In this document: positions 12,123-28,861 of the stretch, piece after piece
Position numbering within the stretch: position 1 is the first letter of the stretch
Layout: every line of letters begins with the position of its first letter
Assembly (NCBI GenBank): GCA_002344075.1
Contig: DDTM01000058.1
Location: forward strand, 21,874 to 85,873
Direction of reading: 5' to 3'
DNA length: 64,000 nt
Source of the DNA: Bacteroidetes bacterium UBA2364
GTDB lineage: Bacteria; Bacteroidota; Rhodothermia; Rhodothermales; UBA2364
Position numbers and translations under genes: made by a program
The notes under the pieces: generated by a model
Database searches by the model: none
What the model saw: only the letters and a program-made list of their open reading frames with translations
What the model was told of the DNA's origin: nothing

Positions 12123-12294
12123 ACTTGGTTGATTATGATGGATCGGAGTGGCGGATGGGCCAAGTAATAGAATGGTGTATCCGAAAACAAGTTTATGACG
12201 GATTCTGGAAAGGCGAGGGCTGCACATCAGGCAAGAATGGGACCACAGAATGATCTTGGAATTGCATTGACTTTTCCGTAACTTAACAAAAAAT

Positions 12295-12401
12295 AAGAAC
12301 GGCACCGAAGCAAAACTGGAGGAGGTACTGTTGTTTTGCGCTCGATACCGTTCTTCAAACCACCAAACACCAAAAGGTACAACCACTAAGCCGTACCTTT
12401 T
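12295..12401. other. Cluster of nested hairpins in the 524-bp gap upstream of the T6SS-like operon
   Basis: Outer stem AAGAACGG (12295-12302) pairs with CCGTTCTT (12348-12355). It encloses inner stem GCAAAAC (12310-12316) paired with GTTTTGC (12333-12339). A 9-bp hairpin follows: AAAAGGTAC (12372-12380) paired with GTACCTTTT (12393-12401), then an A-run. All arms are perfect complements. Confidence 0.3.
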
Positions 12402-12646
12402 AAAAAAAGGTAACAAGTCCGGAAAAAATATTTTTTTCGCCTTTCCACTTGCTTTTTACGTTCTTTAGGGTTAAATACGAATCGCTTCCGCTTTCAAGAC
12501 TTCTGGAGCCTCTGGGCGTGGGTTTTCCTCAAAATGAAACAGCCCAAGGTAGTTGTTGTACAGGTTCGTATCTACCAGTAGAGGGCAGTTGGCTTTCTTA
12601 AAATTTGCGTTCGCATCCATAGATCATAAAACCTATCACCGCAGTT

Positions 12647-14527
12647 ATGGAAAACACTTCTCCGATTCAGGAATTTCGCGTCAAAATGGGGTTCTCGTCG
12701 TCTCAGGGCGAGGAACCGCGTGAAATGACTGCTGCTACGCCTTTTCGCTTGTTTCTGGCTTCTGACCTGACGCCTCACCTCATGCATGATGTCGAGTGGG
12801 ACGGTGCAACCCGTTTGGTAAAAGTGGATAAATATACTTTTGCTGAACTGATGATGTCTTGGAGGCCCACTTTATCTATAGAAGTGCCCAATTATTTAGG
12901 CACTTCACCGAAAACGCTATCGCTGTCATTGATCTTTGACCATATTCAAGGGTTTCAGCCAGATCGGTTGGTGGACCAATTGCCTTTGGTGAAGCGTTTT
13001 TTAGGTCTTAGGGATGCCTTCCTTATGGTCAAGCGCGATCAACTGTCTTATCAAGCCTTTGCTGGAACAATTCAAACGCTGGGTTTTGATCGGGAGGAGG
13101 CATTGCATTGGTCTGACCGAATCCGTCCGGTTCCCGAAGAGAATGCCTCACCCTCAACGTCGAATTCTGGTGGAGGTTTGGACAATTTGCTAAATTTGGT
13201 GGACTTGGGTGCTACGGCTACACCTGAAAAACAAGCTGGTGGAGATCCGATGGATGCCCTTATTCGTGCTTTAGCGGGTCAAAAAGCGGCTTCACCACCC
13301 AAACGCCCTATAGAAAAGGGGAAAAGTGCTTTACAAGTGGCCCTCGAAGAAGTGGAAAATCGGATTGCCCAACAATTGGATGCTGTGATCCATCATGCGG
13401 CATATCAACAATTGGAATCCTCATGGCGCGGCTTGAAATTATTGGTAGATCGTCTGGATTTTCGGAAAAATATCCGTTTAGACGTGCTTTCTGTCAATAA
13501 GGAACAGTTAAATACGGCCTTGTATCATCAAGTCTTAATGCCTGCCTATGAGATACCTCCTGAAATTCCTTTTGCAGCCTTGTTATTGGATTTTACGTTT
13601 GGGGATGTGGCCATGGATCTGGAGCGTCTTTCAGATATTGGAGAAACGGCTGCAAGCCTTCAAATTCCGGTTGTTGCTTCGGCGGCTACAAGGCTCTGGA
13701 CTGAACGTGATGCTTATGGAAATTCAAGAATTCCTACCATTCTACAGCATTTACAAAAACCGGAATTTATGGGATGGCCCTTGTTGCGTGAGCAGGCATC
13801 GTCGGGATGGATAACTTTGGCGTTGCCACATGTGCTACTCCGAAGTCCTTATCGGTCTATGCAACTGATGGGTGGTCTTCCCTATAATGAAAAAACACCT
13901 TCGGATGGAAGTGGACATTTATGGGGACGTGCGTCTTTGCCTGTTGGGGTCGCGATGGCCCAAGGTTATGTAAAGCACGCTTGGGGAACAGGGTTTGTTG
14001 GGCCTGGAAGTGCGGGTGAACAACAGGATTACCCCATTAGGAAAACCGATACCAACAGTTCGCCACTCTCTATGTGGCTTGATACGCATAAACAAGTTGA
14101 ATTCTCGGATGCTGGATTTACGGTTCTGGCTTCCCGGCCCAATTCGGATCGGGTGTATGTTGCTGGCGCGCAAGTTTTTCAGAAAGTGGCGAACTATATA
14201 GACCCTGATTCACTCGCGGAAGCACAACGCCATGCTTCGTTGTCGTGTAAAATGGTGACTGGTAAAATAACGCAAGCCATTTTATTCGCCCAAAGCATCC
14301 TTAAATCTGGTTTGTCGCCTGAGCAAATTCACGCACAACTGGTGAACCAACTCGAAAAGGTTTTAACCGAAGGCGGTCTCATGATCGCAGAAAACACAAT
14401 AAAAGTAGAAGTAGGCGATAGCCCGCGTGCCGCAGACTGTTATGGAGTCGGGATATGGATTAATTCCCCCGCCTCTCTTTTAGGAGAGGAAGTGAGTATT
14501 GCACTCGGATTTGAAGTCGCCAAATAA
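12647..14527 (+). CDS. tssBC: Contractile-sheath protein: TssB (VipA)-like and TssC (VipB)-like parts fused in one 626-aa polypeptide
   Basis: Residues about 28-160 match TssB. PFRLFLASDLT, LVKVDKYTFAELM, LSIEVPNYL and LSLSLIFDHIQGFQPDRLVDQLPLVKRFLGLRDAF parallel VipA (LPLKLMAIGDYT, ISIDKMTFDEVL, LSVPNRL, LRFKSLKDFEPENIVEQIPELKKLLELRSAL). Residues about 176-626 match TssC. QLDAVIHHAAYQQLESSWRGLKLLVDRLDFRKNIRLDVLSVNKEQL parallels VipB (QMDEILHNSQFQAMESAWRGLKLFVDRTDFRENNKVEILHVTKDEL). There is no stop or frame change between the two parts. Confidence 0.85.
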   Translation: MENTSPIQEFRVKMGFSSSQGEEPREMTAATPFRLFLASDLTPHLMHDVEWDGATRLVKVDKYTFAELMMSWRPTLSIEVPNYLGTSPKTLSLSLIFDHIQGFQPDRLVDQLPLVKRFLGLRDAFLMVKRDQLSYQAFAGTIQTLGFDREEALHWSDRIRPVPEENASPSTSNSGGGLDNLLNLVDLGATATPEKQAGGDPMDALIRALAGQKAASPPKRPIEKGKSALQVALEEVENRIAQQLDAVIHHAAYQQLESSWRGLKLLVDRLDFRKNIRLDVLSVNKEQLNTALYHQVLMPAYEIPPEIPFAALLLDFTFGDVAMDLERLSDIGETAASLQIPVVASAATRLWTERDAYGNSRIPTILQHLQKPEFMGWPLLREQASSGWITLALPHVLLRSPYRSMQLMGGLPYNEKTPSDGSGHLWGRASLPVGVAMAQGYVKHAWGTGFVGPGSAGEQQDYPIRKTDTNSSPLSMWLDTHKQVEFSDAGFTVLASRPNSDRVYVAGAQVFQKVANYIDPDSLAEAQRHASLSCKMVTGKITQAILFAQSILKSGLSPEQIHAQLVNQLEKVLTEGGLMIAENTIKVEVGDSPRAADCYGVGIWINSPASLLGEEVSIALGFEVAK

Positions 14528-14626
14528 AGATACTTCTTATTTCGTTTGATTATATCTTCTGGATTTGTCCCAGACAAGAGCCAAGCAATCATTAACCCAT
14601 ACACTAAAACGTTACCTATTCCGCGT

Positions 14627-17600
14627 ATGCAAACAAACATTCGCGTTTCAATCCTGAAAGGGCCTATATCTGGCGATAAAGATGCCTTTCAATTTAGCAA
14701 GACCTTCAATATAGGTCGGGATGCTACGTGTCAAATTCACCTCCCCAGTCCACTGGTGAGTCGTACACATGCAGACGTGTCTTTTGAAAATGGGCAATGG
14801 ATTTTGCATGACCGTAACAGTACGAATGGTATTTGGGTAAACGGTGCACGCACATCCCGTGTCGTTTTGGATATTGCCAAGGAGGTGGAATTTGGTCGTA
14901 ATGGCCCAATGTTGCGATTCGAGGTTGAGTCATTGGACAGCCCTATAGCAGAAGTGCCTGTGGTAACTCCGGAAGCGGGGTTGGCAACTTCCTTTTGGCA
15001 ATCTTTGGGTGAAATATCAGGGACTTCCCCCAGTTCTACAGAAACGCCAGTTCCTCAAACATCAGCAGAAACGGTAGCTCCGCCTTTGGAATCCGGTTTT
15101 TTTGCTGCTTTATCGGATACTCCGCCTGATGTATCTTCTATCGAGGCCACAGGAGAAACGCCCTCTCTATCGGAAAAACCCTCCGTCGAATCGGGCATTT
15201 TTACTTCAATTGATCCCTCAAAGGAATCATTTTTTGAAAGCCGCCCTGATGGGCCTACTTTTGAAGGCCTGAAAAATGTTCACCATTCCGAGGAACCACC
15301 CGCCAACGACAGTGATAAATTGGGATTGGAATCCGGTTTTTTTCGTTCATTATCGGAAGTTGTTCCTGAAACTCCAGCCCCACTCACTTTGCCTGCGACG
15401 CCTTCTTCAGCGGGCGTAACAGGATTGGAGTCGGGTTTTTTCCGTTCGTTATCGGAAATTGATGGAGCAAGCCCATCCTTGGGCAAGGAAGAGCCTCAGC
15501 AGTCAGAGGCAGTATCTGTCGCTGAATCAACAACGGCACCATCATTAGGCACTGGCTTTTTCGCTGCTTTAACGGAAGAAGCTCCACCACAGCCTACGCC
15601 CCCTATAAGTACCGATTCCATAGATTCGGCTTTGCCATCGGGCATCTTTCGCGCATTGTCCGAGTTGCCTCAGTCTGCTCCTATACCCACAGAGGAAGTA
15701 CCAGTTACGCCCGTCAAACCGGATGAAAACATGGAAATGGGTTTCTCATCTGGCATTAGTTCGGCTCTTCAGGACTTGAAAGGGATAGCTGGGGGGAAAA
15801 CACCAGATGCGCCGCAAGCGGGATTGAATACAGGGTTTTTTAAAGCGTTAGAACATGTTGCAGGCGAGGCTCCGGCATCGGCATCACCCCAGCCAATTTC
15901 GTGGGATTCGCCTGAAAAGGCGGGATGGGATACCGATACGCCGCCACCGTCCGCCGTACCAGTTGTTACACCTTGGCCATCCGCCCCCCTTACAGACAAA
16001 CCAGACTGGCCCGCCGCACAAACGGATTGGGGTACCGAAAGTACACCGCCGCACGTTGCGCCATCTTACGAATGGAGTACTCCGGGGATACCTGTGCCTC
16101 CTCCAGTACCACCCAATGAACCCCCTTTAGACGCCCTCTTCAATCAATGGGGGGCAGTAGAGGCTCCACCAGTGGGTGGAATGGAATGGGGTGCTCCACC
16201 ACCTGCTAAGGCGGGCACAGATTGCGGGACACCGCAACAATCACAAAGTGTAGGAATGGAATGGGGAAGTGAGCCGCCAGCCCATGATAAACCAGTTGCG
16301 GATGATTGGGGAGCGGCTAAGCCAACTGCTACAGATTCTGGATTTAGTTGGCCGCCTGTGCCTACTGCTGGCCATGCCGATTGGAACCCAACGTCAAACC
16401 GTGAAATGGCATTGCCATCGTCTGCGGATGATTGGTCCACACCTTCGGGGCCGCCCCCTGTAAACACTCCGCCTGCCGACTGGGGGCCTGGGTCCAAATG
16501 GGAACCATCGGCAATTGCTCCATCTTATCAGGAAGCCTCGAAAGCAACACCTCCGGCCCCAGGATCTGTTTCTGGCTATATGCGGAAGTTTGAGTCTGGT
16601 CAAACTGCGGAAATGGGTTCGCGCACCCAGATGATGATGGCGGCTTTTTCGCGAATGAGTAAACGGGACAAGCGAAAATATTACTACATCATCGGTATTG
16701 TGGCAGTTGCGTTGGTTATTGCTGCTATCTGGGCTTTATGGAAGCACAACGAAAGTAGTTCATTGGGCGAAGCATTGGATGCGTCGAATGTGGCATTGAC
16801 GACCCAAGACTCTTTAAATGTTGTTTTATTTTATCAAATTAAAGAATTACAACTCAAATTCGCCAATGATTCTACACTGAATACGAACAAGAAATTACGC
16901 GACGAAACGGCCAGAAAAATTATTGAAATGCAACAGGCCTATTCCGAGAAAATGCGTGCAAGGCCCCAGTATAGGGCTGCGGTGAATTTGGCGAATTCGG
17001 GCAATGCGAGTGGGAATGTGGATAAATTGATTTATGACATTACACGGCTTTTTGGTGAAAATGAAATGGTAATGCCTGCCGGATATGTGGATAAAGTCAA
17101 ACAGTATATCAAATATTGGCAGAGTAGTTCACGGTATATAAACGCCCTGCGAACAGCCCAAGATAACGGGTATGTGGAACCCATTGTGGCCAGTTTCATG
17201 AAGCGCGGGGTACCACCGCAGTTTTTCTACTTAGGCATGCAAGAAAGTAATTTTAACACCAAAATTGTGGGGCCTCCTACCCGTTATGGCCATGCAAAAG
17301 GAATGTGGCAATTTATTCCTTCAACGGGCGCACGATATGGGCTGAAAATTGGCCCATTGAAGGATGTTGGAGTCTATGACCCTGAAGACGAAAGGCACGA
17401 CCACGTAAAAGCGGGGGAAGCGGCGGCAGGTTATATTGCTGATATTTATAAGACGGATGCACAAGCTTCCGGATTGTGTGTCATGGCTTCGTACAACTGG
17501 GGAGAGGGAAATGTCATCAAACGCATTAGGGCTATGCCTAATAATCCCCGCGACCGCAATTTTTGGAATATGTACACGCAGACTTGGATGCCCGAAGAAA

Positions 17601-17827
17601 CCAAAAATTACGTGTTTTATATTACCGCAGCAGCAGTTATTGGCGAGAACCCTCGCTTGTTTGGGTTTAATTTCGACAACCCATTAGCGGCGGCCATACA
17701 AAAAGTTGGAAGTGGGCAGTATGTAATGCCAGGAGGCGGCAGCCCCACTTATTCAGATTTACCACCCATGACCTTAGCGATGGATAGAGAACGGGAGCAA
17801 TTGTTTAAATTCCGGACGTTCTGGTGA
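14627..17827 (+). CDS. FHA domain / long disordered repeat region / single TM helix / periplasmic MltD-type lytic transglycosylase (SLT) protein
   Basis: Track ORF starts at TTG 14546; I prefer ATG 14627 (MQTNIRVSILKG). The FHA signature is NIGRDA, VSRTHA and STNGIWVNG. The TM helix is IIGIVAVALVIAAIWALW, preceded by SKRDKRKYYY. SLT motifs are FYLGMQESNFN (catalytic Glu), AKGMWQFIPSTGARYGL and MASYNWGEGNV. Confidence 0.8.
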   Translation: MQTNIRVSILKGPISGDKDAFQFSKTFNIGRDATCQIHLPSPLVSRTHADVSFENGQWILHDRNSTNGIWVNGARTSRVVLDIAKEVEFGRNGPMLRFEVESLDSPIAEVPVVTPEAGLATSFWQSLGEISGTSPSSTETPVPQTSAETVAPPLESGFFAALSDTPPDVSSIEATGETPSLSEKPSVESGIFTSIDPSKESFFESRPDGPTFEGLKNVHHSEEPPANDSDKLGLESGFFRSLSEVVPETPAPLTLPATPSSAGVTGLESGFFRSLSEIDGASPSLGKEEPQQSEAVSVAESTTAPSLGTGFFAALTEEAPPQPTPPISTDSIDSALPSGIFRALSELPQSAPIPTEEVPVTPVKPDENMEMGFSSGISSALQDLKGIAGGKTPDAPQAGLNTGFFKALEHVAGEAPASASPQPISWDSPEKAGWDTDTPPPSAVPVVTPWPSAPLTDKPDWPAAQTDWGTESTPPHVAPSYEWSTPGIPVPPPVPPNEPPLDALFNQWGAVEAPPVGGMEWGAPPPAKAGTDCGTPQQSQSVGMEWGSEPPAHDKPVADDWGAAKPTATDSGFSWPPVPTAGHADWNPTSNREMALPSSADDWSTPSGPPPVNTPPADWGPGSKWEPSAIAPSYQEASKATPPAPGSVSGYMRKFESGQTAEMGSRTQMMMAAFSRMSKRDKRKYYYIIGIVAVALVIAAIWALWKHNESSSLGEALDASNVALTTQDSLNVVLFYQIKELQLKFANDSTLNTNKKLRDETARKIIEMQQAYSEKMRARPQYRAAVNLANSGNASGNVDKLIYDITRLFGENEMVMPAGYVDKVKQYIKYWQSSSRYINALRTAQDNGYVEPIVASFMKRGVPPQFFYLGMQESNFNTKIVGPPTRYGHAKGMWQFIPSTGARYGLKIGPLKDVGVYDPEDERHDHVKAGEAAAGYIADIYKTDAQASGLCVMASYNWGEGNVIKRIRAMPNNPRDRNFWNMYTQTWMPEETKNYVFYITAAAVIGENPRLFGFNFDNPLAAAIQKVGSGQYVMPGGGSPTYSDLPPMTLAMDREREQLFKFRTFW
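14981..15856 (+). repeat. In-frame array of about 10 copies of a short motif (consensus L-E-S-G-F-F-x-x-L-S-E) within the FHA-SLT gene
   Basis: Copies are SFWQSLGEIS, LESGFFAALSD, VESGIFTSID, KESFFESR, LESGFFRSLSEV, LESGFFRSLSEI, LGTGFFAALTEE, LPSGIFRALSEL, GFSSGISSALQDL and LNTGFFKALEHV. The DNA copies at 15086, 15326 and 15425 are visibly similar (ttggaatccggttttttt...tatcgga). Confidence 0.8.
15899..16501 (+). repeat. Trp/Pro-rich repeat region (15 Trp in about 200 aa, mostly acidic-W-G/S/D/N/P) within the FHA-SLT gene
   Basis: SWDSPEKAGWDTD, PDWPAAQTDWGTES, YEWSTPG, NQWGAVEAPPVGGMEWGAPPP, VGMEWGSEPP, ADDWGAAKP, FSWPPVP, ADWNPTS, ADDWSTPSG and PADWGPGSKWEPS. Confidence 0.75.
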
Positions 17828-17863: not shown

Positions 17864-19489
17864 ATGGTACAAAAACAAATGCCTCACCTGCTACAACTGG
17901 GTGAAAAAACCGATGTCGGACGGGTTCGCACCGAAAATCAGGATGCTTGCGGGCATTTTGTAGGTACTCCACAGGACGATAAACCAGCTGTTCATCTTTA
18001 TGTTGTGGCGGATGGTATGGGCGGTCATGCCGATGGCCGGATTGCGAGTAACACAGCGGTCAACACAGTGGGCGAGGCCTATTTTTCCCGCCGTATCGGA
18101 TCGGTACTCACGCGCTTAGAACACGCTTTCCAAGAAGCCAACCTCAATATCCACAAATTATTGAAAGATTTGCCTGGTGGACAAATCATGGGGACTACTT
18201 GTACGGCTTTGCTGATAGATGGGGATCGGGCTTTTGTTGCACACGTTGGAGATAGCCGTTTGTATCGGATTCGCCCAGATAAAGCAGAACAAATTTCGGA
18301 AGACCATACCATGATTTCTGCTATGGTAAAAAAAGGCATTCTGACCCCACAAGAGGCCGAACGACATCCACAAAGATCCATGTTGGAACGGGCATTGGGG
18401 CCGGAATCGCATGTAGAAGTAGATACCTTCGAGATAGACCGGCTTCATTTGAATGATGTGTATGTGCTTTGTAGTGATGGCCTCGGAGATGTACATTTGC
18501 CGGAAATATCCGAAATTGTCCGTGCAATGCCCCCACAAGAAGCGGCAGAGAAAATGGTGGCTCTTGCAAATGAGCGCGGTGGCTTGGACAACTCGACCGT
18601 GCAAGTGGTTCGAGTGGCGCCGTCCGATAAGCCTATTGAATACACGGCATCGAATGCCTCTTTTGATACCCAATTACGCCAGCAGGAGGCGCACCCAACG
18701 GTCTCAACTGGTGTCTGGAATGCATTAGAGCAACCGGAAATGTGGAGAAACGACCGTGGACATGCCGTGCTTCCTCCACCGCCAGAAGCAAAAGACCGCC
18801 CAAAGTGGCTTATTCCGATGATCTCGGGCTTGGCGATGCTGGTTGTGGTTGGGGCTGTATGGTTCAACTTAGATTTGCTGAACCGCTCTAAATCAGCTTC
18901 GGTTGCGTTACAAAAAGAGCCTTATAATGAAAATGCTTATTCAGAGGGAAGCCCTTCAAAAGAGCCAGAAACACAGGGAACTACTCTTGGTACTCAAGAT
19001 AATGTAGCTCCTTTGTTATCCGATAATCCCTTGAACAACGGAACCAAACCACCGACGCTTCCGAGTATGGTACCTCCGGTAATTGGTGCCAGTAAACCAG
19101 AAGCGGCAAGAACCACGAGCAAGCCGAAAGAAAATCCCGTTGCAATCAAACCCGAATCCTCTAAAACGGAAACAGAAAAACCGCAAGAACAAGGAAAAGA
19201 TGGTGCAAAATTGGCGAACGGCTTGGCCGAGGCATGGCAAAACCTTCAGACGGGAAACCACCAAGTGGCCGTGAGCCGGTTTATTTCGTTAGAAGCGGAA
19301 TTTGGCAAAACCCCTGAATATCGGGAAGAACGAAGCAAGGCGGCAAAAAAATTGATGTCGTTGGGAGATGGTAAACGGGCAACTCCAGCAAGTGCCTTGG
19401 ATTTGTACCGAAAGTCTCAACAACTCTTGGATAACGAAACGATCCAGAGCAGAATTACCGAAATTCAAAAAATGGAAACCAATAATTAA
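17864..19489 (+). CDS. pppA: PP2C-family Ser/Thr phosphatase (PppA-like), membrane-anchored with an extracytoplasmic C-terminal region
   Basis: PP2C motifs RTENQDA, VVADGMGGHADG, CSDGL and GGLDNSTV. The TM helix WLIPMISGLAMLVVVGAVWF lies near aa 315. About 200 aa follow it (low complexity plus a helical TPR-like end). Confidence 0.8.
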   Translation: MVQKQMPHLLQLGEKTDVGRVRTENQDACGHFVGTPQDDKPAVHLYVVADGMGGHADGRIASNTAVNTVGEAYFSRRIGSVLTRLEHAFQEANLNIHKLLKDLPGGQIMGTTCTALLIDGDRAFVAHVGDSRLYRIRPDKAEQISEDHTMISAMVKKGILTPQEAERHPQRSMLERALGPESHVEVDTFEIDRLHLNDVYVLCSDGLGDVHLPEISEIVRAMPPQEAAEKMVALANERGGLDNSTVQVVRVAPSDKPIEYTASNASFDTQLRQQEAHPTVSTGVWNALEQPEMWRNDRGHAVLPPPPEAKDRPKWLIPMISGLAMLVVVGAVWFNLDLLNRSKSASVALQKEPYNENAYSEGSPSKEPETQGTTLGTQDNVAPLLSDNPLNNGTKPPTLPSMVPPVIGASKPEAARTTSKPKENPVAIKPESSKTETEKPQEQGKDGAKLANGLAEAWQNLQTGNHQVAVSRFISLEAEFGKTPEYREERSKAAKKLMSLGDGKRATPASALDLYRKSQQLLDNETIQSRITEIQKMETNN

Positions 19490-19497
19490 TCAACATC

Positions 19498-21075
19498 ATG
19501 GTAGGTCAGTACATTGATATTTATCGGGTTACGCAGAAACTTGGCCAAGGGGGCATGGGGCAGGTTTGGAAAGCGATAGACACCCAACTCGATCGGACGG
19601 TTGCACTTAAGGTAATGAACGTGCAAGACCCCATGTTTTTGCAGCGCTTCCGGGCAGAGGCAAAAGCCTTGGCCATGTTAGACCATCCCAATATTGTACG
19701 TGTTTTCGGGATGCGTGAAACACCTATTGGAATGGTCATCATTATGGAGTTTGTGGAAGGAAAGGATTGGTCGGACCTGATCTCGCAGGGGAAGTACAAC
19801 ACGCCGGAAGATGTGGCCAATATTTCGAGTCAGTTACTGAGTGCTTTGGAGTATGCTCACTCCAAAGCCATCATACATCGGGATATCAAGCCAAGCAACA
19901 TCATGATAATGGCCGATGGGACAGTTAAAGTGACCGATTTTGGCCTCGCAAAACTTATTGACCCGCAAGCAACCATTGCCGGAAATCCATTGACCCAGGC
20001 CGGACAAGCCGTTGGCAGCCTGTACTATATGTCTCCTGAACAGGTAAAAGGCTTAGATTCGGTGGATCAACGCACCGACATCTATTCCACAGGGATTACC
20101 ATGTATGAGGCTTTGGCAGGGCGTCCACCATTCGAGGATGTAACGGCTACTTCACCCTATGTTATCCAGAAAAAGATTGTGGATGGAGATGTTCCGGCCA
20201 TTACTTCAGCAGCTCCGGGTATTCCCGCCGATCTTGCCAAGGTGATCAACCGGGCGATTCAGGTTCGCCCCGACAAACGGTACGCGAGTGCAGCAGATAT
20301 GCGCCTTGGATTGCAACAACTGGCGACAGGTCAGCAGTCTTCATACCTCCCGCCTGCATCTTCCAGTAAGAAGGTTACGGTTTCATCTAAAAGTGTAACC
20401 ACCCGATCTACAAGCCCCAACTGGATCATGATAGGTGGTATTGGAGCGGTGGTGGTTTTGGGCTTCGTAGCAATATGGTTTTTTGTCTTGAGGCCGCAGC
20501 CCAAGCCCGCTCCTCAGCCTCAGCAAGACGTCACACAAAATGATCCATTACTGAATTCAAATACGAGCCTACAGCCAAGCCAGGCAAATAATCCAAGTAC
20601 GCCCCAGGTCAACAATACACCTCCCTCGGAGAACAATACAGGCGATGTACCTGTTTTGACTACACCACCGCCAAAGAATACGACCCCTGTCCGTGACCGG
20701 ATCCAGCAAGGAGCGCAGACTATTCGTGAAAACGTTCAAAATCGAGAACCGATTATCACACGGCCAACCAAGCCCAATACGGCCAATAACAATAACCAGA
20801 CAACAACACCTGTCACAGAAAAACCAAAAGAAGAGCCTAAGCCTGAGCCTCCGGCGGCAGAAGGTTCGTTTATGGTTACAGTAGTGGGGCCGGATGGTGA
20901 ACCCCTTCCGGCAACCATCTCAACCGATCTGGGTTCCGGTTATGGTGCCCGGAAGAAGTTTACGGGAAAGCCTGGTACCTATTCAGTTTCAGTCAAAGGG
21001 CCGGATGGCACTACCAAAAATACTTCTGTTAAGGTGGTGGCGGGAAAAACAACCGCTACAACCGTCCGTTTCTAA
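19498..21075 (+). CDS. ppkA: Hanks-type Ser/Thr protein kinase (PpkA-like) with a TM helix, a Pro/Asn/Thr-rich spacer and a small C-terminal beta-sandwich-like domain
   Basis: GQGGMGQVWKA (G-loop), VALKV, HRDIKPSNIM, DFGLAK and YMSPEQ. The TM helix is WIMIGGIGAVVVLGFVAIWFFVL. The C-terminus is FMVTVVGPDGEPLPATIS...GTYSVSVKGPDGTTKNTSVKVVAGKTTATTVRF. The start is 8 nt after the pppA stop. Confidence 0.9.
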   Translation: MVGQYIDIYRVTQKLGQGGMGQVWKAIDTQLDRTVALKVMNVQDPMFLQRFRAEAKALAMLDHPNIVRVFGMRETPIGMVIIMEFVEGKDWSDLISQGKYNTPEDVANISSQLLSALEYAHSKAIIHRDIKPSNIMIMADGTVKVTDFGLAKLIDPQATIAGNPLTQAGQAVGSLYYMSPEQVKGLDSVDQRTDIYSTGITMYEALAGRPPFEDVTATSPYVIQKKIVDGDVPAITSAAPGIPADLAKVINRAIQVRPDKRYASAADMRLGLQQLATGQQSSYLPPASSSKKVTVSSKSVTTRSTSPNWIMIGGIGAVVVLGFVAIWFFVLRPQPKPAPQPQQDVTQNDPLLNSNTSLQPSQANNPSTPQVNNTPPSENNTGDVPVLTTPPPKNTTPVRDRIQQGAQTIRENVQNREPIITRPTKPNTANNNNQTTTPVTEKPKEEPKPEPPAAEGSFMVTVVGPDGEPLPATISTDLGSGYGARKKFTGKPGTYSVSVKGPDGTTKNTSVKVVAGKTTATTVRF

Positions 21076-21102: not shown

Positions 21103-22224
21103 ATGAAACCCTTCTTTTCTTTCACTTCTGTATTGGGGTTGATGACATTGCTCTTAACCGCATGTTCGGGTCCTAAAGAAGCAAATCTGACGTCAAGTCA
21201 ACCATCCGTAACATCTAACACCGAGACCAATGTCGTTCCAAACAAACCTCAGCCGGTACGCCTCATTGATCCGCGTGTTCAGGAAGCCATACGCCAGTTT
21301 AATTTAGGGGAATATGACGAAGCATTGCCTAAACTGGAGCGGCTCAGCCGCGATCGCTCGCTAAGCGTCACCGATCGCCGAGCGACCTTGGAAGCCTTAG
21401 CTGAATTTGCAGCGGCCTCCGAGGAAAACAATAAAGCAATACAATTGGTTTCTACCTTATTACAAGAAGAACCCCCTGCGTATGAACCTGATCCAGATAA
21501 AAAACCATTAGAATACCTCCGGGCCTATTATATGGCACGTAAAAATAAATCTGGTGGATTTGGCGTGGAACGTGCGGATCCAGGTATTAAGACCATTGCG
21601 GTGATGGATTTCCATAATGCATCCATTACAACCGACGCGGCCCGTTACGACCGTTTGCAAGTAGGTTTGCCGCAATTGATGATGTTCCAATTCCAACAAA
21701 ATGTGAACCTAAAAGTCGTTGAACGAGCCCGGTTGGATTGGCTGATGCAAGAAGCCAAAATACAAAATGATCCAGCCAGTTTTGATGTTTCTCAAGCCGT
21801 TCGGGTTGGGAAAATGTTGGGTGCACATTCGGTCGTATTTGGTACATTCATTGTATTAGACAAAAATCGAGTTCGGATTGCTGCCCGTTTGGTGAAGGTA
21901 GAAACGTCTGAGATTCTTTTGACCGAAAACATGGAAGGCAAACCCGCAGATATAATGGCACTTTCAGATCAGTTGGCTCTCCGTTTGGCACGGCGGATCA
22001 ATGAAAACCAAGCGATTAAAATGGCAGCGGCCAATCCTACCAATTCGTTAGATGCCATGCTGGCCTATGCTGAAGGATTGGAAGTATATCATACACAAGG
22101 CCCCGACCTGGCTTTGGAGAAGTTTAAATTGGCAGTACAATTGGATGGGCGGTTTGAGCAAGCCAAAGAAAAAATTGCCGTTATCGAAACGTCGCAACGC
22201 ATGGCAGCGGCCAATGTAAAATAA
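21103..22224 (+). CDS. Lipoprotein: TPR-like helical region + CsgG/LpoB-like domain + C-terminal TPR-like region
   Basis: Lipobox LLLTAC. The core is IAVMDFHNAS...LKVVERARLDWLMQEAKI...VRVGKMLGAHSVVFGTF...RVRIAARLVKVETSEIL, the pattern of CsgG-like periplasmic lipoprotein domains. It is paralogous to the next ORF. Confidence 0.5.
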   Translation: MKPFFSFTSVLGLMTLLLTACSGPKEANLTSSQPSVTSNTETNVVPNKPQPVRLIDPRVQEAIRQFNLGEYDEALPKLERLSRDRSLSVTDRRATLEALAEFAAASEENNKAIQLVSTLLQEEPPAYEPDPDKKPLEYLRAYYMARKNKSGGFGVERADPGIKTIAVMDFHNASITTDAARYDRLQVGLPQLMMFQFQQNVNLKVVERARLDWLMQEAKIQNDPASFDVSQAVRVGKMLGAHSVVFGTFIVLDKNRVRIAARLVKVETSEILLTENMEGKPADIMALSDQLALRLARRINENQAIKMAAANPTNSLDAMLAYAEGLEVYHTQGPDLALEKFKLAVQLDGRFEQAKEKIAVIETSQRMAAANVK

Positions 22225-22249: not shown

Positions 22250-23557
22250 ATGAGATATGTAAACTGGTTTATGCTGCTTATCTTGGTTTTTTATGTTGGT
22301 TGTAGTGGAATTCAGCAATCAAAACCGCCGAAAGTCAGGCTTCTGGAATATGAACGGCTTTTGGTAAAAAATCCAGGTAATCCGGTTATGATGCGGGAAT
22401 TGGGGATCGCACACTTCGAGCTGAATCAATTTGATCAGGCCGAAAGCTACCTCAAAGATGCCATTGTCCGCTCGCCTGCCGACCCCAAAATTGCCCTCTT
22501 TTATGGGTTGGTTTTGGAAGCCACCAATCGGAGGGCCTCTGCTTTAGATATATATAAAAGTTATACGCAATATGATCCCAAAGTCAATTTTACTCGACTC
22601 TTGGAAGGCCGTTACCTTAATTTGACGCGGGCGATTCTCCGATCGGAAATGGCAGAATTAGCACGTAAAGAATCATCCGGCGAGCTTACAAATGGCCGTT
22701 TAGAACAAAATGCTGTTGCTGTTTTCCCATTTAGTTACTTAGGCAAGAATAAGCAGTACGAACCTTTGAGCCGTGGAATTGCAGCATTAATCATTACAGA
22801 CCTAGGTTCTGTTCAAGGGCTGAAGTTATTAGAACGGCTTCAAATTGGTGTTTTGCAGCAAGAAATCGCGAGGGGACAAACGGGCTTTATTGATCCGGAA
22901 TCTGCTCCACGCGCTGGTCGGATACTGGGGGCTTCTAAAGTGGTTTCTGGTAATTTCAATGTTTCGGCTAAACAACAAATCACCATTGATGCAGGTTATT
23001 GGGATGTTTTGAAGGATGAATCGGACTTCAAAACGGAGCCTGGGCCTCTTGCAGATTTGTTCCGGCTCCAAAAAAGTGTGGTAATCAAATTGTTGGAAAG
23101 CATGAAGATTCCTATTACAACACAAGAGCGTCAAAAGATATTAGGAACTGTGCCTACTCAAAATCTTCAGGCATTTCTGGCGTATTGCCGAGGCATGGAG
23201 GCGGAAGACTCTGGGGATGTACCCGGCGCTCTGCGCAATTTTAGACGGGCAGTGGAGTTGGATCCTAAATTTCAAAAAGCACGAGAATTGCTTGATAAAA
23301 ACATAAACCGACAGGCTGCCGGAAGCAGTTGGAAAGACATTAACATCTCGTATGACTTCAACGGAGCTGGTAAAAATGGAGGCGCAGGCTTGGGCACCGA
23401 CCAATTGGTTGCGGATCGCTTGCAGGCTGTTGGTACGGAAATGGGGGCCAACCTTTTCCCAAATCCTGAAAAGCGCAACCCGACCGATGAGTTTGGGCGT
23501 GTTTCAGAACAAACCGATTTGCCGCGTCCGCCAATTTTTCCACCAAAAGGCAATTAA
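22250..23557 (+). CDS. Lipoprotein, paralogue of the preceding gene (TPR + CsgG/LpoB-like domain + TPR)
   Basis: Lipobox FYVGCSG. TPR-like MRELGIAHFELNQFDQAESYLKDAI. The core is VAVFPFSYLG...LKLLERLQIGVLQQEIARG...PRAGRILGASKVVSGNF. The tail ALRNFRRAVELDPKFQKARELL parallels LEKFKLAVQLDGRFEQAKEKI in the previous protein. Confidence 0.5.
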   Translation: MRYVNWFMLLILVFYVGCSGIQQSKPPKVRLLEYERLLVKNPGNPVMMRELGIAHFELNQFDQAESYLKDAIVRSPADPKIALFYGLVLEATNRRASALDIYKSYTQYDPKVNFTRLLEGRYLNLTRAILRSEMAELARKESSGELTNGRLEQNAVAVFPFSYLGKNKQYEPLSRGIAALIITDLGSVQGLKLLERLQIGVLQQEIARGQTGFIDPESAPRAGRILGASKVVSGNFNVSAKQQITIDAGYWDVLKDESDFKTEPGPLADLFRLQKSVVIKLLESMKIPITTQERQKILGTVPTQNLQAFLAYCRGMEAEDSGDVPGALRNFRRAVELDPKFQKARELLDKNINRQAAGSSWKDINISYDFNGAGKNGGAGLGTDQLVADRLQAVGTEMGANLFPNPEKRNPTDEFGRVSEQTDLPRPPIFPPKGN

Positions 23558-23575: not shown

Positions 23576-24757
23576 ATGAAAAAAATGCTTTGGCTATGTG
23601 CTGGGGTTTTGATGGCCTGGCCGGTTATGGCACAACAAACTTCATCGCCAACCACGGAGGATCCGCAAAATGTCCGTAATAAGCGGTTTGCCGGCGTCAT
23701 GCCGACCTATCAATCGTGGACTATTGAGGCAGCGTCTGGAGAAACCCTGTCGCTCGGACAGGTCTCCAATCAAGTGCTGGTATATTACCAAGTGAACAAT
23801 CAGGTCTTGATGTCGCTGCGGAACTCCCAAGGGAGGTTTGATGCTGATTGCGAAGCGTGTTTGAATCCGACTTCCACCAGACAAACCTTCTCTGGGGTAG
23901 GCGATACCCAAGTCTCACTTTCATACCGCCTCCCCAATCCTAATTTAATTTTTAATGCAACTGTCAACTTGCCTACTGGCCGTTCGTCCCTTACTTCCGA
24001 AGAATTAGAAACGGTTGGCTTGTTTTCTAATCAGGTATTGGAGTTTAAATTGCCCGTACTTGGACAAGGTACTGCTCTTATGACCAGCGTTTCTGGGGCA
24101 TTCCCTTTGGGCGAGCAAGCGGTGCTGGGAGGGGGGCTTTCCTATATTGTGAATGGAGGATTTAAGCCGCTCACGGATCTTGAGGCCGAGTATAAGCCAG
24201 GGAATGAAGTTTCTGCTGATGTCGGGGTAAATTTCAAGATGGGATCAAACGGTTCTTTGGGAATGGACGCCATGATCACCCGTTACAACGAAGACTACTT
24301 TGTGGAAAAGGCGGTTTTTAAAGCCGGAACGAAAATTAGTACCGTTCTTCAATACCGCCATTTGAATTCAACGACGGAATGGGCGGCATTGGTGCGTTAT
24401 CGTTCACGAGAAAAAAATGCCATCGCCAGTTTTGTGGGAGAAACCCCTGCCGAAGAAGCGACAAATTCCAATCCTGCTGTAATGATGGCTCGCGCAACAT
24501 ATCGGATGAACCTGAATAAGGCGTTCGTCCCTGGTTTTTCGGTAGAAATGAGGTCTTATGCTGCGACTCCTGCCTGGTTGTCGGGCGCATTGATAGGAGG
24601 TATTGGGTTTGATCCCGAGTTTAGACTAAACGAATCAATTCTTATTCCCCTCCGAATTCGTTTTGTTTCTGGAACGGTTTCTAATCAGGGCTACTACCCC
24701 AATACCCGTTCATTGCGAAATTTGAGTGCCAGCGTGGGGTTTTATTGGTCTTTCTGA
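23576..24757 (+). CDS. Outer-membrane beta-barrel protein (MetA/transporter-like)
   Basis: Signal peptide MKKMLWLCAGVLMAWPVMAQQ. Alternating beta-strand pattern throughout, an NLPTG motif, and a C-terminal aromatic signature VGFYWSF ending in Phe. Confidence 0.55.
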   Translation: MKKMLWLCAGVLMAWPVMAQQTSSPTTEDPQNVRNKRFAGVMPTYQSWTIEAASGETLSLGQVSNQVLVYYQVNNQVLMSLRNSQGRFDADCEACLNPTSTRQTFSGVGDTQVSLSYRLPNPNLIFNATVNLPTGRSSLTSEELETVGLFSNQVLEFKLPVLGQGTALMTSVSGAFPLGEQAVLGGGLSYIVNGGFKPLTDLEAEYKPGNEVSADVGVNFKMGSNGSLGMDAMITRYNEDYFVEKAVFKAGTKISTVLQYRHLNSTTEWAALVRYRSREKNAIASFVGETPAEEATNSNPAVMMARATYRMNLNKAFVPGFSVEMRSYAATPAWLSGALIGGIGFDPEFRLNESILIPLRIRFVSGTVSNQGYYPNTRSLRNLSASVGFYWSF

Positions 24758-24872: not shown

Positions 24873-26123
24873 ATGTTACTCAAAATCATTGTTAGTCACT
24901 CTGTTCGGGATGATTTTTCGTCCGACTACCTCTTTGATGAAGGACCCGTGACCATTGGTCGTCTTCCGGAAAACAAAGTGGTTTTACCAGACCGCGAGTT
25001 GATTGTGGGACGACATCATGCGGTGATCTATCTCGAAGAAGCCTTTGCATGGATTGTGGACGAGTCTAGTAAAAATTTTACGTTTTTAAATGGAGAAAAA
25101 CTCGAACACGGAAAGAAATACCAACTTCGAGACCAAGATCAACTGGAAATTGGCAAGTACCAGTTAAGGCTCTTGGACCTTACACCGAAAAATGAACCTA
25201 AAGTAGCTCCTGAAGCCGAAGGACAAACAGCCGTTCAGCCTGCTTTTAATCCTTTTTCGGACTTAGTTCGTGGATTGACCGATGTGCTTCAGCAAATCAA
25301 AGCCTCCTATGTGCAGGCTGATCCGGGAACACGAATGGTTGATTTGGAAAATGCATTCCATCGAGGATTGGGGACGTTTTCTACAGATGAAATAGCCCTT
25401 AAAATGGTGGATGCCATTCGCCCCAAGACCGAGTTTTCGTCTGTACAAGTGTCGGTGCCTTCGGCGGAGCCAGAAAAACCACGTATTGCCCCCCCTGCGG
25501 AAATGCCAGGATTTGTACCTTATTCTGGGATAGATGTACAAAATAAAACGGAGTGGGAACGTGCAATCGGAGGAATTTATAGCAGTGGACAGGATGGGTT
25601 GATTTTAAAACGCATGGCAGTGGTGGATGATGTGATGTTGCGGATTGTAGAAAAGTTGATTAAAATTCCGGCACATTTTAGGCTAGAGTTTTTAGGCCAC
25701 TCCTTCATTCCACATGCTTCCGGTTTTCCGTTCCACACAGCAACGGTTGAGCAATATAAAGCCTTTTTGTACGATATTCATGTGCCTTACGAGGTCTTGC
25801 GTGCCCGTTTGTCGGCTTTAGAACAGATTGCGGAAGCGGTGCTTTATCACGAGATTGCCTTGCTCGAAGGCTATAAGCAGGCGGTTCAATCTGGTGCTTT
25901 GCGGATATTGGATCAATTAAATCCAGAACATATAAAAAATGTTGCAGAAAAGGAAGGCCAAGATCTATACACCGTTGGTATGTTGAGCCATGCCAAGTGG
26001 CTAAAATTGGTGCAACAGGCACACTATGAACTGGTCAGAGAGGATAAAGGTGTGGTTGAAAAAACCATTTTTAGGCCCGGTTTTGTGAAAGCCTATCTGG
26101 CGAAAATAGAGTCGGTTAAGTAA
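24873..26123 (+). CDS. tagH: T6SS-associated FHA-domain protein, TagH (ImpI/VasC) type
   Basis: N-terminal FHA (VTIGRLPEN, VGRHHAVI, FTFLNGEKL). The C-terminal region has a TagH-like end (KWLKLVQQAHYEL...IFRPGFVKAYLAKIE). It sits directly upstream of tssJ-tssK-tssL-tssM, as in many T6SS-i loci. Confidence 0.7.
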   Translation: MLLKIIVSHSVRDDFSSDYLFDEGPVTIGRLPENKVVLPDRELIVGRHHAVIYLEEAFAWIVDESSKNFTFLNGEKLEHGKKYQLRDQDQLEIGKYQLRLLDLTPKNEPKVAPEAEGQTAVQPAFNPFSDLVRGLTDVLQQIKASYVQADPGTRMVDLENAFHRGLGTFSTDEIALKMVDAIRPKTEFSSVQVSVPSAEPEKPRIAPPAEMPGFVPYSGIDVQNKTEWERAIGGIYSSGQDGLILKRMAVVDDVMLRIVEKLIKIPAHFRLEFLGHSFIPHASGFPFHTATVEQYKAFLYDIHVPYEVLRARLSALEQIAEAVLYHEIALLEGYKQAVQSGALRILDQLNPEHIKNVAEKEGQDLYTVGMLSHAKWLKLVQQAHYELVREDKGVVEKTIFRPGFVKAYLAKIESVK

Positions 26124-26162
26124 TATTCGTTTTTGTTTTTGCATATTTTAAGGGAGATTCAG

Positions 26163-26666
26163 ATGAAACATTACATGAAGACCCAAACGGTTCTTTTGTT
26201 AAGCCTCTTGGTGGGGAGTGTTTGGATATCGGGTTGTTCTTTGTTTAAAAAGAAAAAGGCCCCACAAACAGTTGTCACTGCACCCGTAGAAACAAGACGA
26301 TCGGTAGAACTAACCATTAAGGCCGATGCAACCCTGAATGGTGGAAATCGTGTTAGGGTTGTGATCTATCAGCTACAGCGCAAAGAATTGTTCATGGCTT
26401 CGTCCCGTCAAGCATTTTGGTTGAAAAAAGAAACCTTGTTGCCAGATATTGCCGGAGATCCAAATCAAACACTCAGCTTTGAAATTGATCCCAATGTATC
26501 AAAGAACCATAAAGTATTTTTGTACGAAAACACCAAGTACATTGGGGTTGCGGTTGATTTCTTCCGGCCCGATGGCAACTTATGGCGTACTGTAACCGAG
26601 ATAAATCCAAATAAAAACAGTATGTTTCAGGTTTCTGTCCAAGGAAGTGCCGTTTCGATTAAATAA
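26163..26666 (+). CDS. tssJ: T6SS outer-membrane lipoprotein TssJ (VasD/SciN family)
   Basis: I moved the start from TTG 26133 to ATG 26163, which is preceded by AAGGGAG. Lipobox WISGCS. The TssJ-like pattern is VELTIKADATLNGGNRVRVVIYQLQRKELF...YIGVAVDFFRPDGNLWR. Confidence 0.7.
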   Translation: MKHYMKTQTVLLLSLLVGSVWISGCSLFKKKKAPQTVVTAPVETRRSVELTIKADATLNGGNRVRVVIYQLQRKELFMASSRQAFWLKKETLLPDIAGDPNQTLSFEIDPNVSKNHKVFLYENTKYIGVAVDFFRPDGNLWRTVTEINPNKNSMFQVSVQGSAVSIK

Positions 26667-26737: not shown

Positions 26738-28093
26738 ATGGCAAGACCCCAAAAAGTAGTCTGGTCGGAAGGCATGGCCCTCGACCCACACCACTTCCAA
26801 CAGTGGGATCGTTTTTCTCAGGCCAATGTTGTGTTTCGTCAGAGAATGTTACAACGTCACGCTTGGGGAATCCTAACATTGATGATTGATGAAGAAGCGC
26901 TCTTAAATGGCCAGTTCAGCTTAAGTCAGGCAAGTGGCATTATGCCAGATGGTCTTGTATTTGATTTACCAGAAACCGATCGTGCACCCGATGCAAGACC
27001 AATACAAGGTGCGTTTGACCCTACAAAAGACCGCTTGGCGGTGTTTTTGGCGGTTCCTGCCGAGCGAGTAGAGGGGCGAAATACGTTGTTGCCGGATGTC
27101 CCCATCAACCGAACAACGCGGTTCGTTACTACCGAAATTTTGGTTCGGGACGATAATACAGGGATTGAAGACCGTCCTATACAAGTTGCGAAAGCCAATT
27201 TTCAATTGGTTTTTGAAGGAGAGAGTGTAAATGATCTTAGTACTATCAAAATTGCCGAGGTTTTACGAACGAGGACCGGTACCTATGAGTTAAACCCCCA
27301 ATTTATACCGCCTTGCTTGTCTTTGGTCTCATCTAAGGCTTTAGAAGGTATCGCTCGTCGTACTATGGAACTCTTGGTGGCAAAGCGTCAGGCGTTAATG
27401 GAAAAACATGCGGCTTATGGTCGCGGCGAATTGATGGCAGCAGATGTGACTACGATGCTGTTTCTGGAATCCATCAATGGTTCGATTCCTGAAATCAACC
27501 ACAATTTCTCGGTCATTCAAAGCCATCCCGAAGCCTTCTTTCTTACGCTGCTGCGGCTGTCGGGTTATCTGACCACTTATTCTACTGCTTTTTCCTACAA
27601 TGATTTTCCTGCGTATGACCACAGTGACCTAACTACTTGTTTTCATACGCTCTTCAACCAGTTCCGGACATTATTGGGGGATGTGGTGTTCTCAAAAGAA
27701 TATGAGCGGATAGACCTGATTCGGAAAGGAGAATCTATTTATCTTGCAACTTTCGATGACCGCCATCTACCCGAAAATGTGGAACTGTATCTGGTGGCAA
27801 CCGGACAAGTGGCATCGGACCGGATGCGGTCTTCTTTTCCAAATGACATTCGGATAGCTTCTCCGGCCATGATCGAGCCTGTATTAAAAGGCTTTGTCCG
27901 TGCCTTGGAAGTACATTATGTTATGAGCCTCCCAAAAGGATTGCCTATACGGCCTGATGCGTTTTATTTCAAGCTGACGAAATCTGGGCCTTTTTGGGAC
28001 GACATTCGGGCAAAAAAAGCCTTGGTACTTTTTGTGCCGGCCACGTTGAAAATGTTGGATTTAGAGCTAATTGCCCTGAATCGTTCTTCATAA
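26738..28093 (+). CDS. tssK: T6SS baseplate/membrane-complex connector TssK (ImpJ/VasE)
   Basis: The N-terminus KVVWSEGMALDPHHFQQWDRF is the TssK shoulder-domain signature. Its 451-aa length and its position before tssL-tssM also fit. Confidence 0.85.
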   Translation: MARPQKVVWSEGMALDPHHFQQWDRFSQANVVFRQRMLQRHAWGILTLMIDEEALLNGQFSLSQASGIMPDGLVFDLPETDRAPDARPIQGAFDPTKDRLAVFLAVPAERVEGRNTLLPDVPINRTTRFVTTEILVRDDNTGIEDRPIQVAKANFQLVFEGESVNDLSTIKIAEVLRTRTGTYELNPQFIPPCLSLVSSKALEGIARRTMELLVAKRQALMEKHAAYGRGELMAADVTTMLFLESINGSIPEINHNFSVIQSHPEAFFLTLLRLSGYLTTYSTAFSYNDFPAYDHSDLTTCFHTLFNQFRTLLGDVVFSKEYERIDLIRKGESIYLATFDDRHLPENVELYLVATGQVASDRMRSSFPNDIRIASPAMIEPVLKGFVRALEVHYVMSLPKGLPIRPDAFYFKLTKSGPFWDDIRAKKALVLFVPATLKMLDLELIALNRSS

Positions 28094-28195
28094 ATCCGAC
28101 TCTTGTTGGACTCTATTCATTCACTTTGGGGCGGTGATGGGCAGGTACCTAAAACCGATCTACCCATTTATACGTTCATTTCAACGTCGAGAATC

Positions 28196-28861
28196 ATGAG
28201 TGCTAAACGTCCGCGTCTTTCCAAGTTCTGCACGGAGTTTTTGATGTTTGCTTTGCACATCCGTCGAACCCAGAACCCCGGTCACCCCGGGACGCTTCGT
28301 GAAAGTGTAAAACTGGCGCTTCAGAAATTAGAAAATACCTGTAAACAGGCGGGAGTTGGTTTTCAGGATTTTCAACAGGCCAAATTCGCCTTGGTGGCAT
28401 TTTTGGATGAGTCTGTGAGTATTCCAGCTTGGCCTTACAATGATGCCTGGAAACGAAATCCGCTTCAATTCGAGTTGTATGGTCGTTACGATGCTGGGGA
28501 ACAATTTTTTGAACGGATTGCATTTCTCCGACAAGATGTTCGGGCGAATCTGGAGGCACTGGAAGTGTTTTATCTATGCCTGACGCTTGGATTTCGAGGG
28601 AAGTATGAAATTGTGGGACGTGACCAATTGGCTGCGTTGCAAGATCAACTATACCGAGATTTGAAGCCCTTTGTCCAAGATACAACAGCCCAACTGGCAC
28701 CCAGTGGATACCCCCGTGCCAAAGTGATGGCGGAAGCGAGGCGGGAAATTCCGATCTGGGTCATTTTTGCCGTTGCTGGTAGCATCATGATTTTGTTTTA
28801 CATCATCATGAGCTTTCTGATTTCCAATGCTGCCGCCAATGTGATGTCGGGAGTTCAATAA
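28196..28861 (+). CDS. tssL: T6SS inner-membrane protein TssL (DotU family), without a peptidoglycan-binding extension
   Basis: DotU pattern FALVAFLDESV, PLQFELYGRYDAGEQFFERI and LEVFYLCLTLGFRGKYE. One C-terminal TM helix (IWVIFAVAGSIMILFYIIMSFLI) has only 12 aa after it. The start is ambiguous: ATG 28196 (used here) or TTG 28103 as in the track. Confidence 0.8.
   Translation: MSAKRPRLSKFCTEFLMFALHIRRTQNPGHPGTLRESVKLALQKLENTCKQAGVGFQDFQQAKFALVAFLDESVSIPAWPYNDAWKRNPLQFELYGRYDAGEQFFERIAFLRQDVRANLEALEVFYLCLTLGFRGKYEIVGRDQLAALQDQLYRDLKPFVQDTTAQLAPSGYPRAKVMAEARREIPIWVIFAVAGSIMILFYIIMSFLISNAAANVMSGVQ

Follow-up and report, generated by a model that had tools for sequence, protein, structure and literature searches.

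A natural TssB-TssC fusion in a partial type VI secretion locus of Bacteroidetes bacterium UBA2364, and the diverged sheath-like family to which it belongs

By the usual description, two separate proteins polymerise to build the sheath of a type VI secretion system (T6SS) (PMC9230969). Can the two be made as one chain, and does such a chain then replace the usual pair? A 64-kb stretch from Bacteroidetes bacterium UBA2364 (GenBank assembly GCA_002344075.1, contig DDTM01000058.1, positions 21,874 to 85,873; the whole stretch is here called the window) raises both questions. It contains an open reading frame (ORF) at 12647-14527 of the plus strand that starts with ATG, encodes 626 amino acids (aa) and has zero in-frame stops under translation table 11. 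An initial reading of the letters alone (the sequence-only reading) had seen in it a continuous polypeptide that combines TssB (VipA) with TssC (VipB), and had pointed out that no gene for the unfoldase ClpV is visible. We consider it moderately likely that the product of this ORF is a T6SS-i sheath protomer paralogue that has diverged, an accessory subunit with the sheath fold beside an ordinary split sheath and ClpV.

Both sheath halves on one chain

The ORF carries both halves, complete and collinear. Pfam T6SS_VipA (PF05591) matched residues 9-145 with 52 bits (gathering score 24), and Pfam VipB (PF05943) matched residues 233-510 of the same chain with 163 bits (gathering score 27), which bears out the claim of a single TssB-TssC polypeptide. 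We then used a family profile built on an alignment of 16 full-length homologues (A1). Solved TssB/VipA chains match its positions 20-161 (E 1e-15 to 3e-23), and full-length TssC/VipB matches positions 185-620, which correspond to residues 5-468/473 of V. cholerae 5mxn_A (E 2e-79). The VipB-like N-terminal segment and the hallmark block, both of which the sequence-only reading had picked out, are found in the profile alignment: 'LDxLLxxVD' pairs with the N-terminal VipB helix 'DEIMAQTRI', and 'WRGLKxLVDR' with VipB 'WRGLKLFVDR' (the longer 'WRGLKxLVDRxxFRxN' pairs with 'WRGLKLFVDRTDFREN').

An AlphaFold2 model, also based on A1, has a mean predicted local distance difference test (pLDDT) score of 80 and a predicted template modelling (TM) score, pTM, of 0.79. 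Low confidence is limited to residues 1-24, 164-224 and 466-474, with pLDDT below 50 across 164-200. The TssB half shows strand E33-39 and helices at 113-159. In a Foldseek search of the PDB, all top matches were T6SS sheath chains, among them TssC (3j9g, 5urw; TM 0.77 on the target) and the TssB chain 5urw_1A (TM 0.67). The canonical pairs of V. cholerae (3J9G/5MXN), M. xanthus (5URW) and P. aeruginosa (5N8N) have the same fold and the same order of elements: the N-terminal strand and C-terminal helices of TssB, and the ClpV-type helix, the WRGLKxLVDR block and the C-terminal strands of TssC. Unlike canonical TssB, a separate chain of ~165 aa that pairs non-covalently with TssC, the fused protein is one chain of 626 aa.

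The sheaths of T4 (gp18), R-pyocin (PA0622) and Afp/PVC also have one chain per protomer and share domains 1 and 2. However, sheaths of phages, pyocins and extracellular contractile injection systems (eCIS) gave far weaker Foldseek matches (E 1e-4 to 1e-2, TM 0.27-0.31 on the query). Unlike those of phages and eCIS, the fused protein has domain 3, which is specific to T6SS, and it nests in TssB/TssC sequence space. We therefore rejected a phage- or eCIS-type identity, as the best matches were all T6SS TssC or TssB chains.

The short Ser/Pro/Gly linker between the halves (Table 1) is in frame, without stop or frameshift, as had been stated. Across the homologues in A1 it varies in length and sequence; it is in frame every time and Ser/Thr-rich throughout. 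The C-terminal tail of canonical Rhodothermota TssB and the N-terminal tail of TssC are likewise acidic, of low complexity and disordered, so the linker looks like two tails read through. We looked for homopolymer runs of at least 6 bases in the junction region and found none.

In principle the fusion could be an artefact of assembly or annotation (a missed stop or a frameshift) or a decaying pseudogene, but nothing specific to this ORF spoke in favour of that. Such artefacts do occur in databases, as two other proteins, P0112 and P0120, show by their resemblance to read-through operons. P0112 (2151 aa) has on one chain the order VipA-VipB-VipB_2-TPR-VipA-VipB-protein kinase-TssK C-terminus (twice), and P0120 (1116 aa) has the unit VipA-VipB-VipB_2 twice. 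The likeliest origin of both is an operon that the gene caller did not divide, or else a recoded organism. Since their scores are canonical-like and they look like read-through operons, we did not use them as a 'Rosetta stone' for a link between sheath and kinase.

For the window ORF, in contrast, the same uninterrupted frame (table 11) is present in three assemblies of a relative with 89 % identity (L002-L004; two from Logan and the NCBI metagenome-assembled genome (MAG) GCA_016788705.1), in a 76 % relative (L097, a JGI metagenome) and in a 44 % relative (L091/L092). A fused ORF is also uninterrupted in the complete Salinibacter ruber chromosome CP020719.1 (L001). The search of other assemblies for a hidden stop or frameshift, which the sequence-only reading had proposed, thus revealed none in L002-L004, L097 or L091. 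The ratio of nonsynonymous to synonymous substitution rates (dN/dS) between the window and L002 is 0.105 overall, 0.11 in the TssB part, 0.13 in residues 160-226 around the linker and 0.10 in the TssC part. These ratios mark the junction as coding sequence that purifying selection maintains. In addition, read-through could not produce a divergence that is specific to a clade. On the strength of the independent assemblies and the dN/dS of about 0.1 we rejected the artefact, whose probability we regard as close to nil, and the fusion can be called natural and selected.

A diverged family that in some relatives coexists with the split pair

The fusion is not a rare oddity. A profile search of 1.84 billion representatives (clusters at 50 % identity) returned 8114 matches at E ≤1e-3; among the best 150 representatives, over 100 are 600-650 aa long and align over their whole length. 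With a separate hidden Markov model (HMM) for each half, both halves were detected on one chain in 135 of the 168 proteins retrieved, while the remainder are mostly fragments from short contigs. The survey for two-domain proteins that had been suggested therefore yields at least 135 of them, and because the family is this large we discarded the idea of an isolated curiosity. Named genomes with members of the diverged group include Salinibacter, Rhodothermales, unclassified Bacteroidota, a Nitrospirae MAG and a Polyangiaceae MAG (very diverged). In public databases the fused proteins are annotated as 'contractile sheath large subunit' or 'sheath domain-containing protein'. Full-text searches, in a library that lacks most subscription journals, turned up no paper on a naturally fused TssB-TssC or on any second sheath paralogue in T6SS. 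The family of one-piece sheath paralogues is large and, it seems, has not been studied.

To place the family, we compared the TssC halves with canonical TssC sequences drawn from genomic loci. In a neighbour-joining tree a single split separates 55 of 55 canonical TssC (plus 4 representatives) from 147 of 147 fused proteins. The mean Kimura distance is 1.58 on the fused side versus 0.73 among canonical TssC. With only ~22-27 % identity to canonical TssC, the fused proteins are a separate and faster-evolving group.

The NCBIfam equivalog models point the same way. The cut-offs are 271.5 bits for TssC (TIGR03355) and 97.25 bits for TssB (TIGR03358). The window protein stays below both (170.8 and 50.9 bits), and so does the fused protein of a Salinibacter MAG, L088 (143.9 and 71.2 bits), whereas the split TssC and TssB of L088 pass with 632 and 158 bits, respectively. 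Unlike the canonical pair, the fused protein is therefore below the equivalog cut-offs, and in relatives it coexists with that pair. Because the protein falls short of both equivalog models and is not two separate polypeptides, we file the family apart from TssB and TssC proper, as a variant that descends from the TssB/TssC of T6SS-i. Although the tree is unrooted, a secondary fusion is the simplest reading, ahead of an ancestor that was never split.

One fused ORF is an exception. In a Saccharospirillum MAG (L056, 18926-20638), TssB and TssC likewise share one table-11 ORF inside a T6SS cluster with a split pair. Unlike in the window protein, the TssC half passes TIGR03355 (461 bits) and is followed by hcp-tssE; the fusion lies between tssM and these genes, and the same cluster has split tssB/tssC and another hcp. 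The distance of this TssC half is 0.93 to canonical TssC versus 1.48 to the nearest member of the fused clade. It probably represents an independent, recent and near-canonical fusion event. As it is nearer to canonical TssC, we did not count it as proof of paralogy for the diverged clade.

Walking outward from ClpV homologues led us to contigs on which split and fused sheath genes occur together. L088/L089 (a Salinibacter MAG and a Logan assembly independent of it) have the order TssB-TssC-Hcp-TssE-TssF-TssG-ClpV-VgrG-PAAR-Rhs-x-DUF2169-fused-FHA/SLT, with a split TssB of 166 aa, a split TssC of 510 aa (VipB+VipB_2) and a fused TssBC of 651 aa. A 469-kb Rhodothermales contig (L090, the same as or overlapping L006) reads TssM-TagF-TssA-TssB-TssC-Hcp-TssE-TssF-TssG-ClpV-VgrG-DUF6484-DUF2169-...-fused. 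The order ClpV-VgrG-cargo-fused recurs in S. ruber (L001), L008 and L095, and the same canonical core with split tssB/tssC is found in Salinibacter sp. 10B and Rhodothermaceae bacterium RA. When the L088 fused protein is compared with the split proteins of its own contig, identity is 27 % for TssC and 32 % for TssB. In these Salinibacter and Rhodothermales relatives, the fused protein is an additional, old and diverged paralogue within a T6SS whose sheath pair is normal and which has ClpV as well.

More distant copies are placed differently. The Polyangiaceae MAG (L027, 14374-16566, minus strand) has a very diverged fused copy of 730 aa, flanked by metabolic genes (flavin oxidoreductase, homoserine dehydrogenase), with split tssB/tssC 2.4 kb away on the opposite strand. 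In L094 and L096 the fused genes lie outside any visible T6SS cluster. The former adjoins an S8 peptidase, and the latter is accompanied by a sigma-54 activator, a Ser/Thr kinase and a polysaccharide deacetylase.

A possible role beside an ordinary sheath

How could a covalently joined protomer work? In the sheath protomer, domain 3 is a helical bundle formed by the C-terminal helix of TssB and the N-terminal helices of TssC; the N-terminal strand of TssB and the C-terminal strand of TssC form the 'handshake' that knits subunits together, and the target of ClpV is VipB's N-terminal helix (P. aeruginosa sheath structure, PMC5807055). The fusion would join the C-terminal tail of TssB to the N-terminal tail of TssC, both in the outer domain 3. 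As these tails meet there, the fold should stay intact, and both handshake arms (N-terminal strand in the TssB half, C-terminal strand in the TssC half) would be left free. Their sequences are conserved (N-terminal 'R[IV]x..' and 'PFR[IL]LLVSDLTP'; C-terminal strands at 585-625). The counterpart of the helix recognised by ClpV appears to be retained: the motif is GLLDQIVAQT in VipB, SVLDSIFSQV in Rhodothermota TssC, and SLDRLMGMVDV or GLDNLLNLVDL in fused proteins, where it is near-invariant (L178, L181; A1). From the free, conserved arms and the kept helix we infer a subunit that would remain capable of polymerisation or co-polymerisation and accessible to ClpV, which would recycle it.

The fused protein would then be a second, specialised subunit of the sheath type. 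It might assemble together with canonical TssBC and take a particular place in that sheath, or it might use the same baseplate and membrane complex for an alternative sheath. Afp/PVC particles, which use several sheath paralogues at different positions, offer a precedent for a second sheath protein with a specialised role. As a tentative extension, which we rate as possible though clearly short of probable, the widespread fused clade would be a dedicated second sheath component of certain T6SS-i machines, either a ring at a defined position or an alternative sheath under phosphorylation control, and maybe the sole sheath in the low-GC (guanine plus cytosine) lineage that includes the window.

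The alternative nearest at hand is that the fused protein is the only sheath subunit here, a one-piece replacement for TssB and TssC that may work independently of ClpV. The sequence-only reading had leaned this way, and several observations fit. No split tssB/tssC or clpV is present within the 64 kb, the fused gene comes first in an operon with the membrane complex and TssK, purifying selection is strong, all sheath elements are kept, and the window subclade always shows a stand-alone locus. The L056 fusion, directly before hcp-tssE, also suggests that fused sheaths can work. However, every relative with visible core genes has split tssB/tssC and clpV too; L088/L089 and L090 even carry them on one contig with the fused gene, which speaks against a one-piece sheath without ClpV. 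The window protein, moreover, falls in the diverged clade, whose scores miss the equivalog cut-offs.

The lack of clpV is not an isolated one. We built HMMs for TssA, Hcp, TssE, TssF, TssG, ClpV and VgrG from seeds labelled by Pfam and ran them on all six frames of the 64-kb window. The search confirmed the reported absence of clpV, and it also gave no TssA, Hcp, TssE/F/G, VgrG, split TssB or split TssC. The T6SS components in the window are only TssJ/K/L/M, Fha and the fused protein, which is short of the complete 13-gene T6SS-i set, so half of the system is probably encoded elsewhere. In relatives, tssM is followed by tagF-tssA-tssB-tssC-hcp-..., while in the window it is followed by ileS (isoleucyl-tRNA synthetase; the block ends at 32418-32560); the cluster has therefore been split in the window lineage.

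No T6SS is known to work without Hcp, VgrG and TssE/F/G. Here the membrane complex and TssK are encoded at a locus under selection, which makes a second locus very probable, and in relatives the corresponding block is the one with the split pair. The window organism probably has its tube, spike, wedge and ClpV genes there, and most likely a split tssB/tssC pair as well, because every relative in which that block is visible has split tssB/tssC and clpV. A metagenome scan for core T6SS genes of the window lineage found none and added one relative (L097) with the same stand-alone locus; accession look-ups linked no ClpV to MAG GCA_016788705.1. A candidate chosen because its ClpV had a low-GC-like amino-acid composition (L098) has a full canonical cluster, but the C-terminus of its TssM is only 23.5 % identical to that of the window. 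Taken together, we find it quite improbable that the fused protein is the only sheath subunit. What stands of the earlier interpretation is a conserved fusion that keeps the ClpV-type helix of VipB; a role as a stand-in for the split sheath in a system without ClpV is not supported.

A different possibility is suggested by the genes that follow. The fused protein could be a scaffold or substrate of a Thr-phosphorylation module rather than a sheath subunit, with a linker that the kinase phosphorylates and to which the FHA-SLT protein binds through its FHA domain; as such it would couple sheath assembly to local opening of the peptidoglycan, or titrate ClpV. The gene for the FHA-SLT protein is immediately adjacent in Rhodothermota/Bacteroidota and in a Nitrospirae MAG; the loci with this adjacency include L001, L005, L021, L064, L088, L091, L093 and L097. 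PP2C and Ser/Thr kinase genes follow it in most fused-gene loci, and a kinase is nearby in L096. The linker, disordered and Ser/Thr-rich in all homologues, would suit such a role, as would the evolution of the family at about twice the rate of canonical TssC. On the other hand, no Thr position in the linker is conserved in A1, and since the canonical tails are similarly acidic and disordered, the linker may be merely joined tails. A mere scaffold would also have no need of the strand arms and the whole polymerisation fold, which are retained. We therefore think a pure scaffold or signalling role, the main rival, unlikely.

Several points weigh against an accessory sheath subunit, which we nevertheless prefer. 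Direct coexistence with the split pair is seen only in distant relatives (~30 % identity) and in the very diverged L027, while in the low-GC subclade (the window, L002-L004, L097 and L091) the locus always stands alone and no split pair is seen. In these stand-alone loci the fused gene is first and TssM last, and the housekeeping neighbours differ between genera. The tree of TssC halves has no outgroup and no bootstrap support. A Pfam scan of the fused protein gave no match to the C-terminal domain VipB_2 (PF18945); strands at 585-625 are present in the model, and the family profile reaches VipB residue 468/473. Finally, with FHA, kinase and phosphatase genes so closely linked to it, the gene could instead have a role in signalling.

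The conservation and selection of a complete protomer on one chain imply that nature at least tolerates a covalent TssB-TssC link at domain 3, a point of use to engineering and to structural studies of sheath protomers. An extra paralogue beside the normal sheath pair, ClpV and a block for phosphorylation and peptidoglycan remodelling, found in several phyla, suggests that T6SS assembly or regulation has an accessory component that has gone unrecognised. If it is indeed a second sheath component, the T6SS sheath is not always a homogeneous TssB/TssC polymer. This is less dramatic than a one-piece sheath system without ClpV. Salinibacter ruber is cultivable and carries the fused gene, so the question can in principle be tested there.

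The block around the fused gene

The fused gene heads a block of co-oriented genes that runs to TssM (Table 1), with sugar-metabolism genes upstream. Like the canonical T6SS-i pair, it is encoded together with TssJ/K/L/M. In its family it belongs to a conserved accessory block that comprises the fused gene, the FHA-SLT, PP2C and Ser/Thr kinase genes, and those for CsgG-like lipoproteins and an outer-membrane protein; the T6SS to which this block belongs has split TssB and TssC, Hcp, TssE/F/G, ClpV and VgrG as well. The constant company of FHA-SLT, phosphatase and kinase suggests that the use of the fused protein may be tied to a phosphorylation checkpoint and to local opening of the cell wall.

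Table 1. Features of the fused gene and its co-oriented block (window positions)
Feature	Position	Strand	Details
Non-coding stretch, presumed promoter region	12123..12646	+	524 bp; no + strand ORF
TssB/VipA-like part of fused ORF	12647..13126	+	Residues 1-160; N-terminal strand arm, beta-strands, C-terminal helices
Linker PVPEENASPSTSNSGGG	13127..13177	+	Residues 161-177; 17 residues, Ser/Pro/Gly, in frame, predicted disordered
TssC/VipB-like part of fused ORF	13175..14527	+	Residues 177-626 and stop; starts GLDNLLNLVDL; includes ESSWRGLKLLVDRLDFRKN (257-275) and C-terminal strands
FHA-low-complexity repeats-transmembrane (TM)-SLT lytic transglycosylase	14546..17827	+	Pfam FHA 55-117, SLT 887-999; 18 nt past fused gene
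PP2C phosphatase (PppA-like)	17864..19489	+	Pfam PP2C; order kept in relatives
Ser/Thr protein kinase (PpkA-like)	19498..21075	+	Pfam Pkinase 1e-55; order kept in relatives
Two paralogous CsgG-like/TPR proteins	21103-22224, 22250-23557	+	Pfam CsgG, TPR; cross-match by HMM
Outer-membrane-like protein	23576..24757	+	Weak Pfam match below cut-off; same position in L006, L097
Fha (TagH-type)	24873..26123	+	Pfam FHA; T6SS_FHA_C 19.3 bits, below gathering cut-off 23.7
TssJ	26133-26666	+	Pfam T6SS-SciN; membrane complex
TssK	26738-28093	+	Pfam T6SS_VasE (2e-107); baseplate connector
TssL	28103-28861	+	Pfam DotU; membrane complex
TssM	28897-32418	+	Pfam IcmF-related domains; membrane complex

A gap similar to that upstream of the fused gene (~590 bp) precedes it in L091. 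A scan for sigma-70-like promoters and for terminators gave nothing above shuffled expectation. The CsgG-like/TPR pair is conserved in L001, L008, L064, L091, L093 and L097. Together with the outer-membrane-like protein, and conserved with the fused gene as they are, these two proteins may form an envelope sensor for the kinase. In the FHA-TM-SLT protein of the window, residues 183-437 hold 7 copies of the repeat [ST]G[FI]Fxx[LI][ST][ED] (e.g. SGFFRSLSE), dispersed over a Pro/Ser-rich stretch between FHA and TM.

Elsewhere the window encodes a SusC-like receptor and FecR/ECF (extracytoplasmic function) sigma proteins, which, like the sorting domain of the protease described below, agree with a Rhodothermota/Bacteroidota origin. 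At 44555-47923 it has a protein of 1122 aa with B12-binding, MeaB GTPase and methylmalonyl-CoA mutase parts, the architecture of an IcmF-type fused mutase. A 977-aa protease of the M36/thermolysin-propeptide type (51919-54852) carries MAM-like domains and a C-terminal sorting domain of the type IX secretion system (T9SS), and a 667-aa protein (54936-56939) has the alpha and beta parts of a dehydrogenase E1 (transketolase-like) on one chain.

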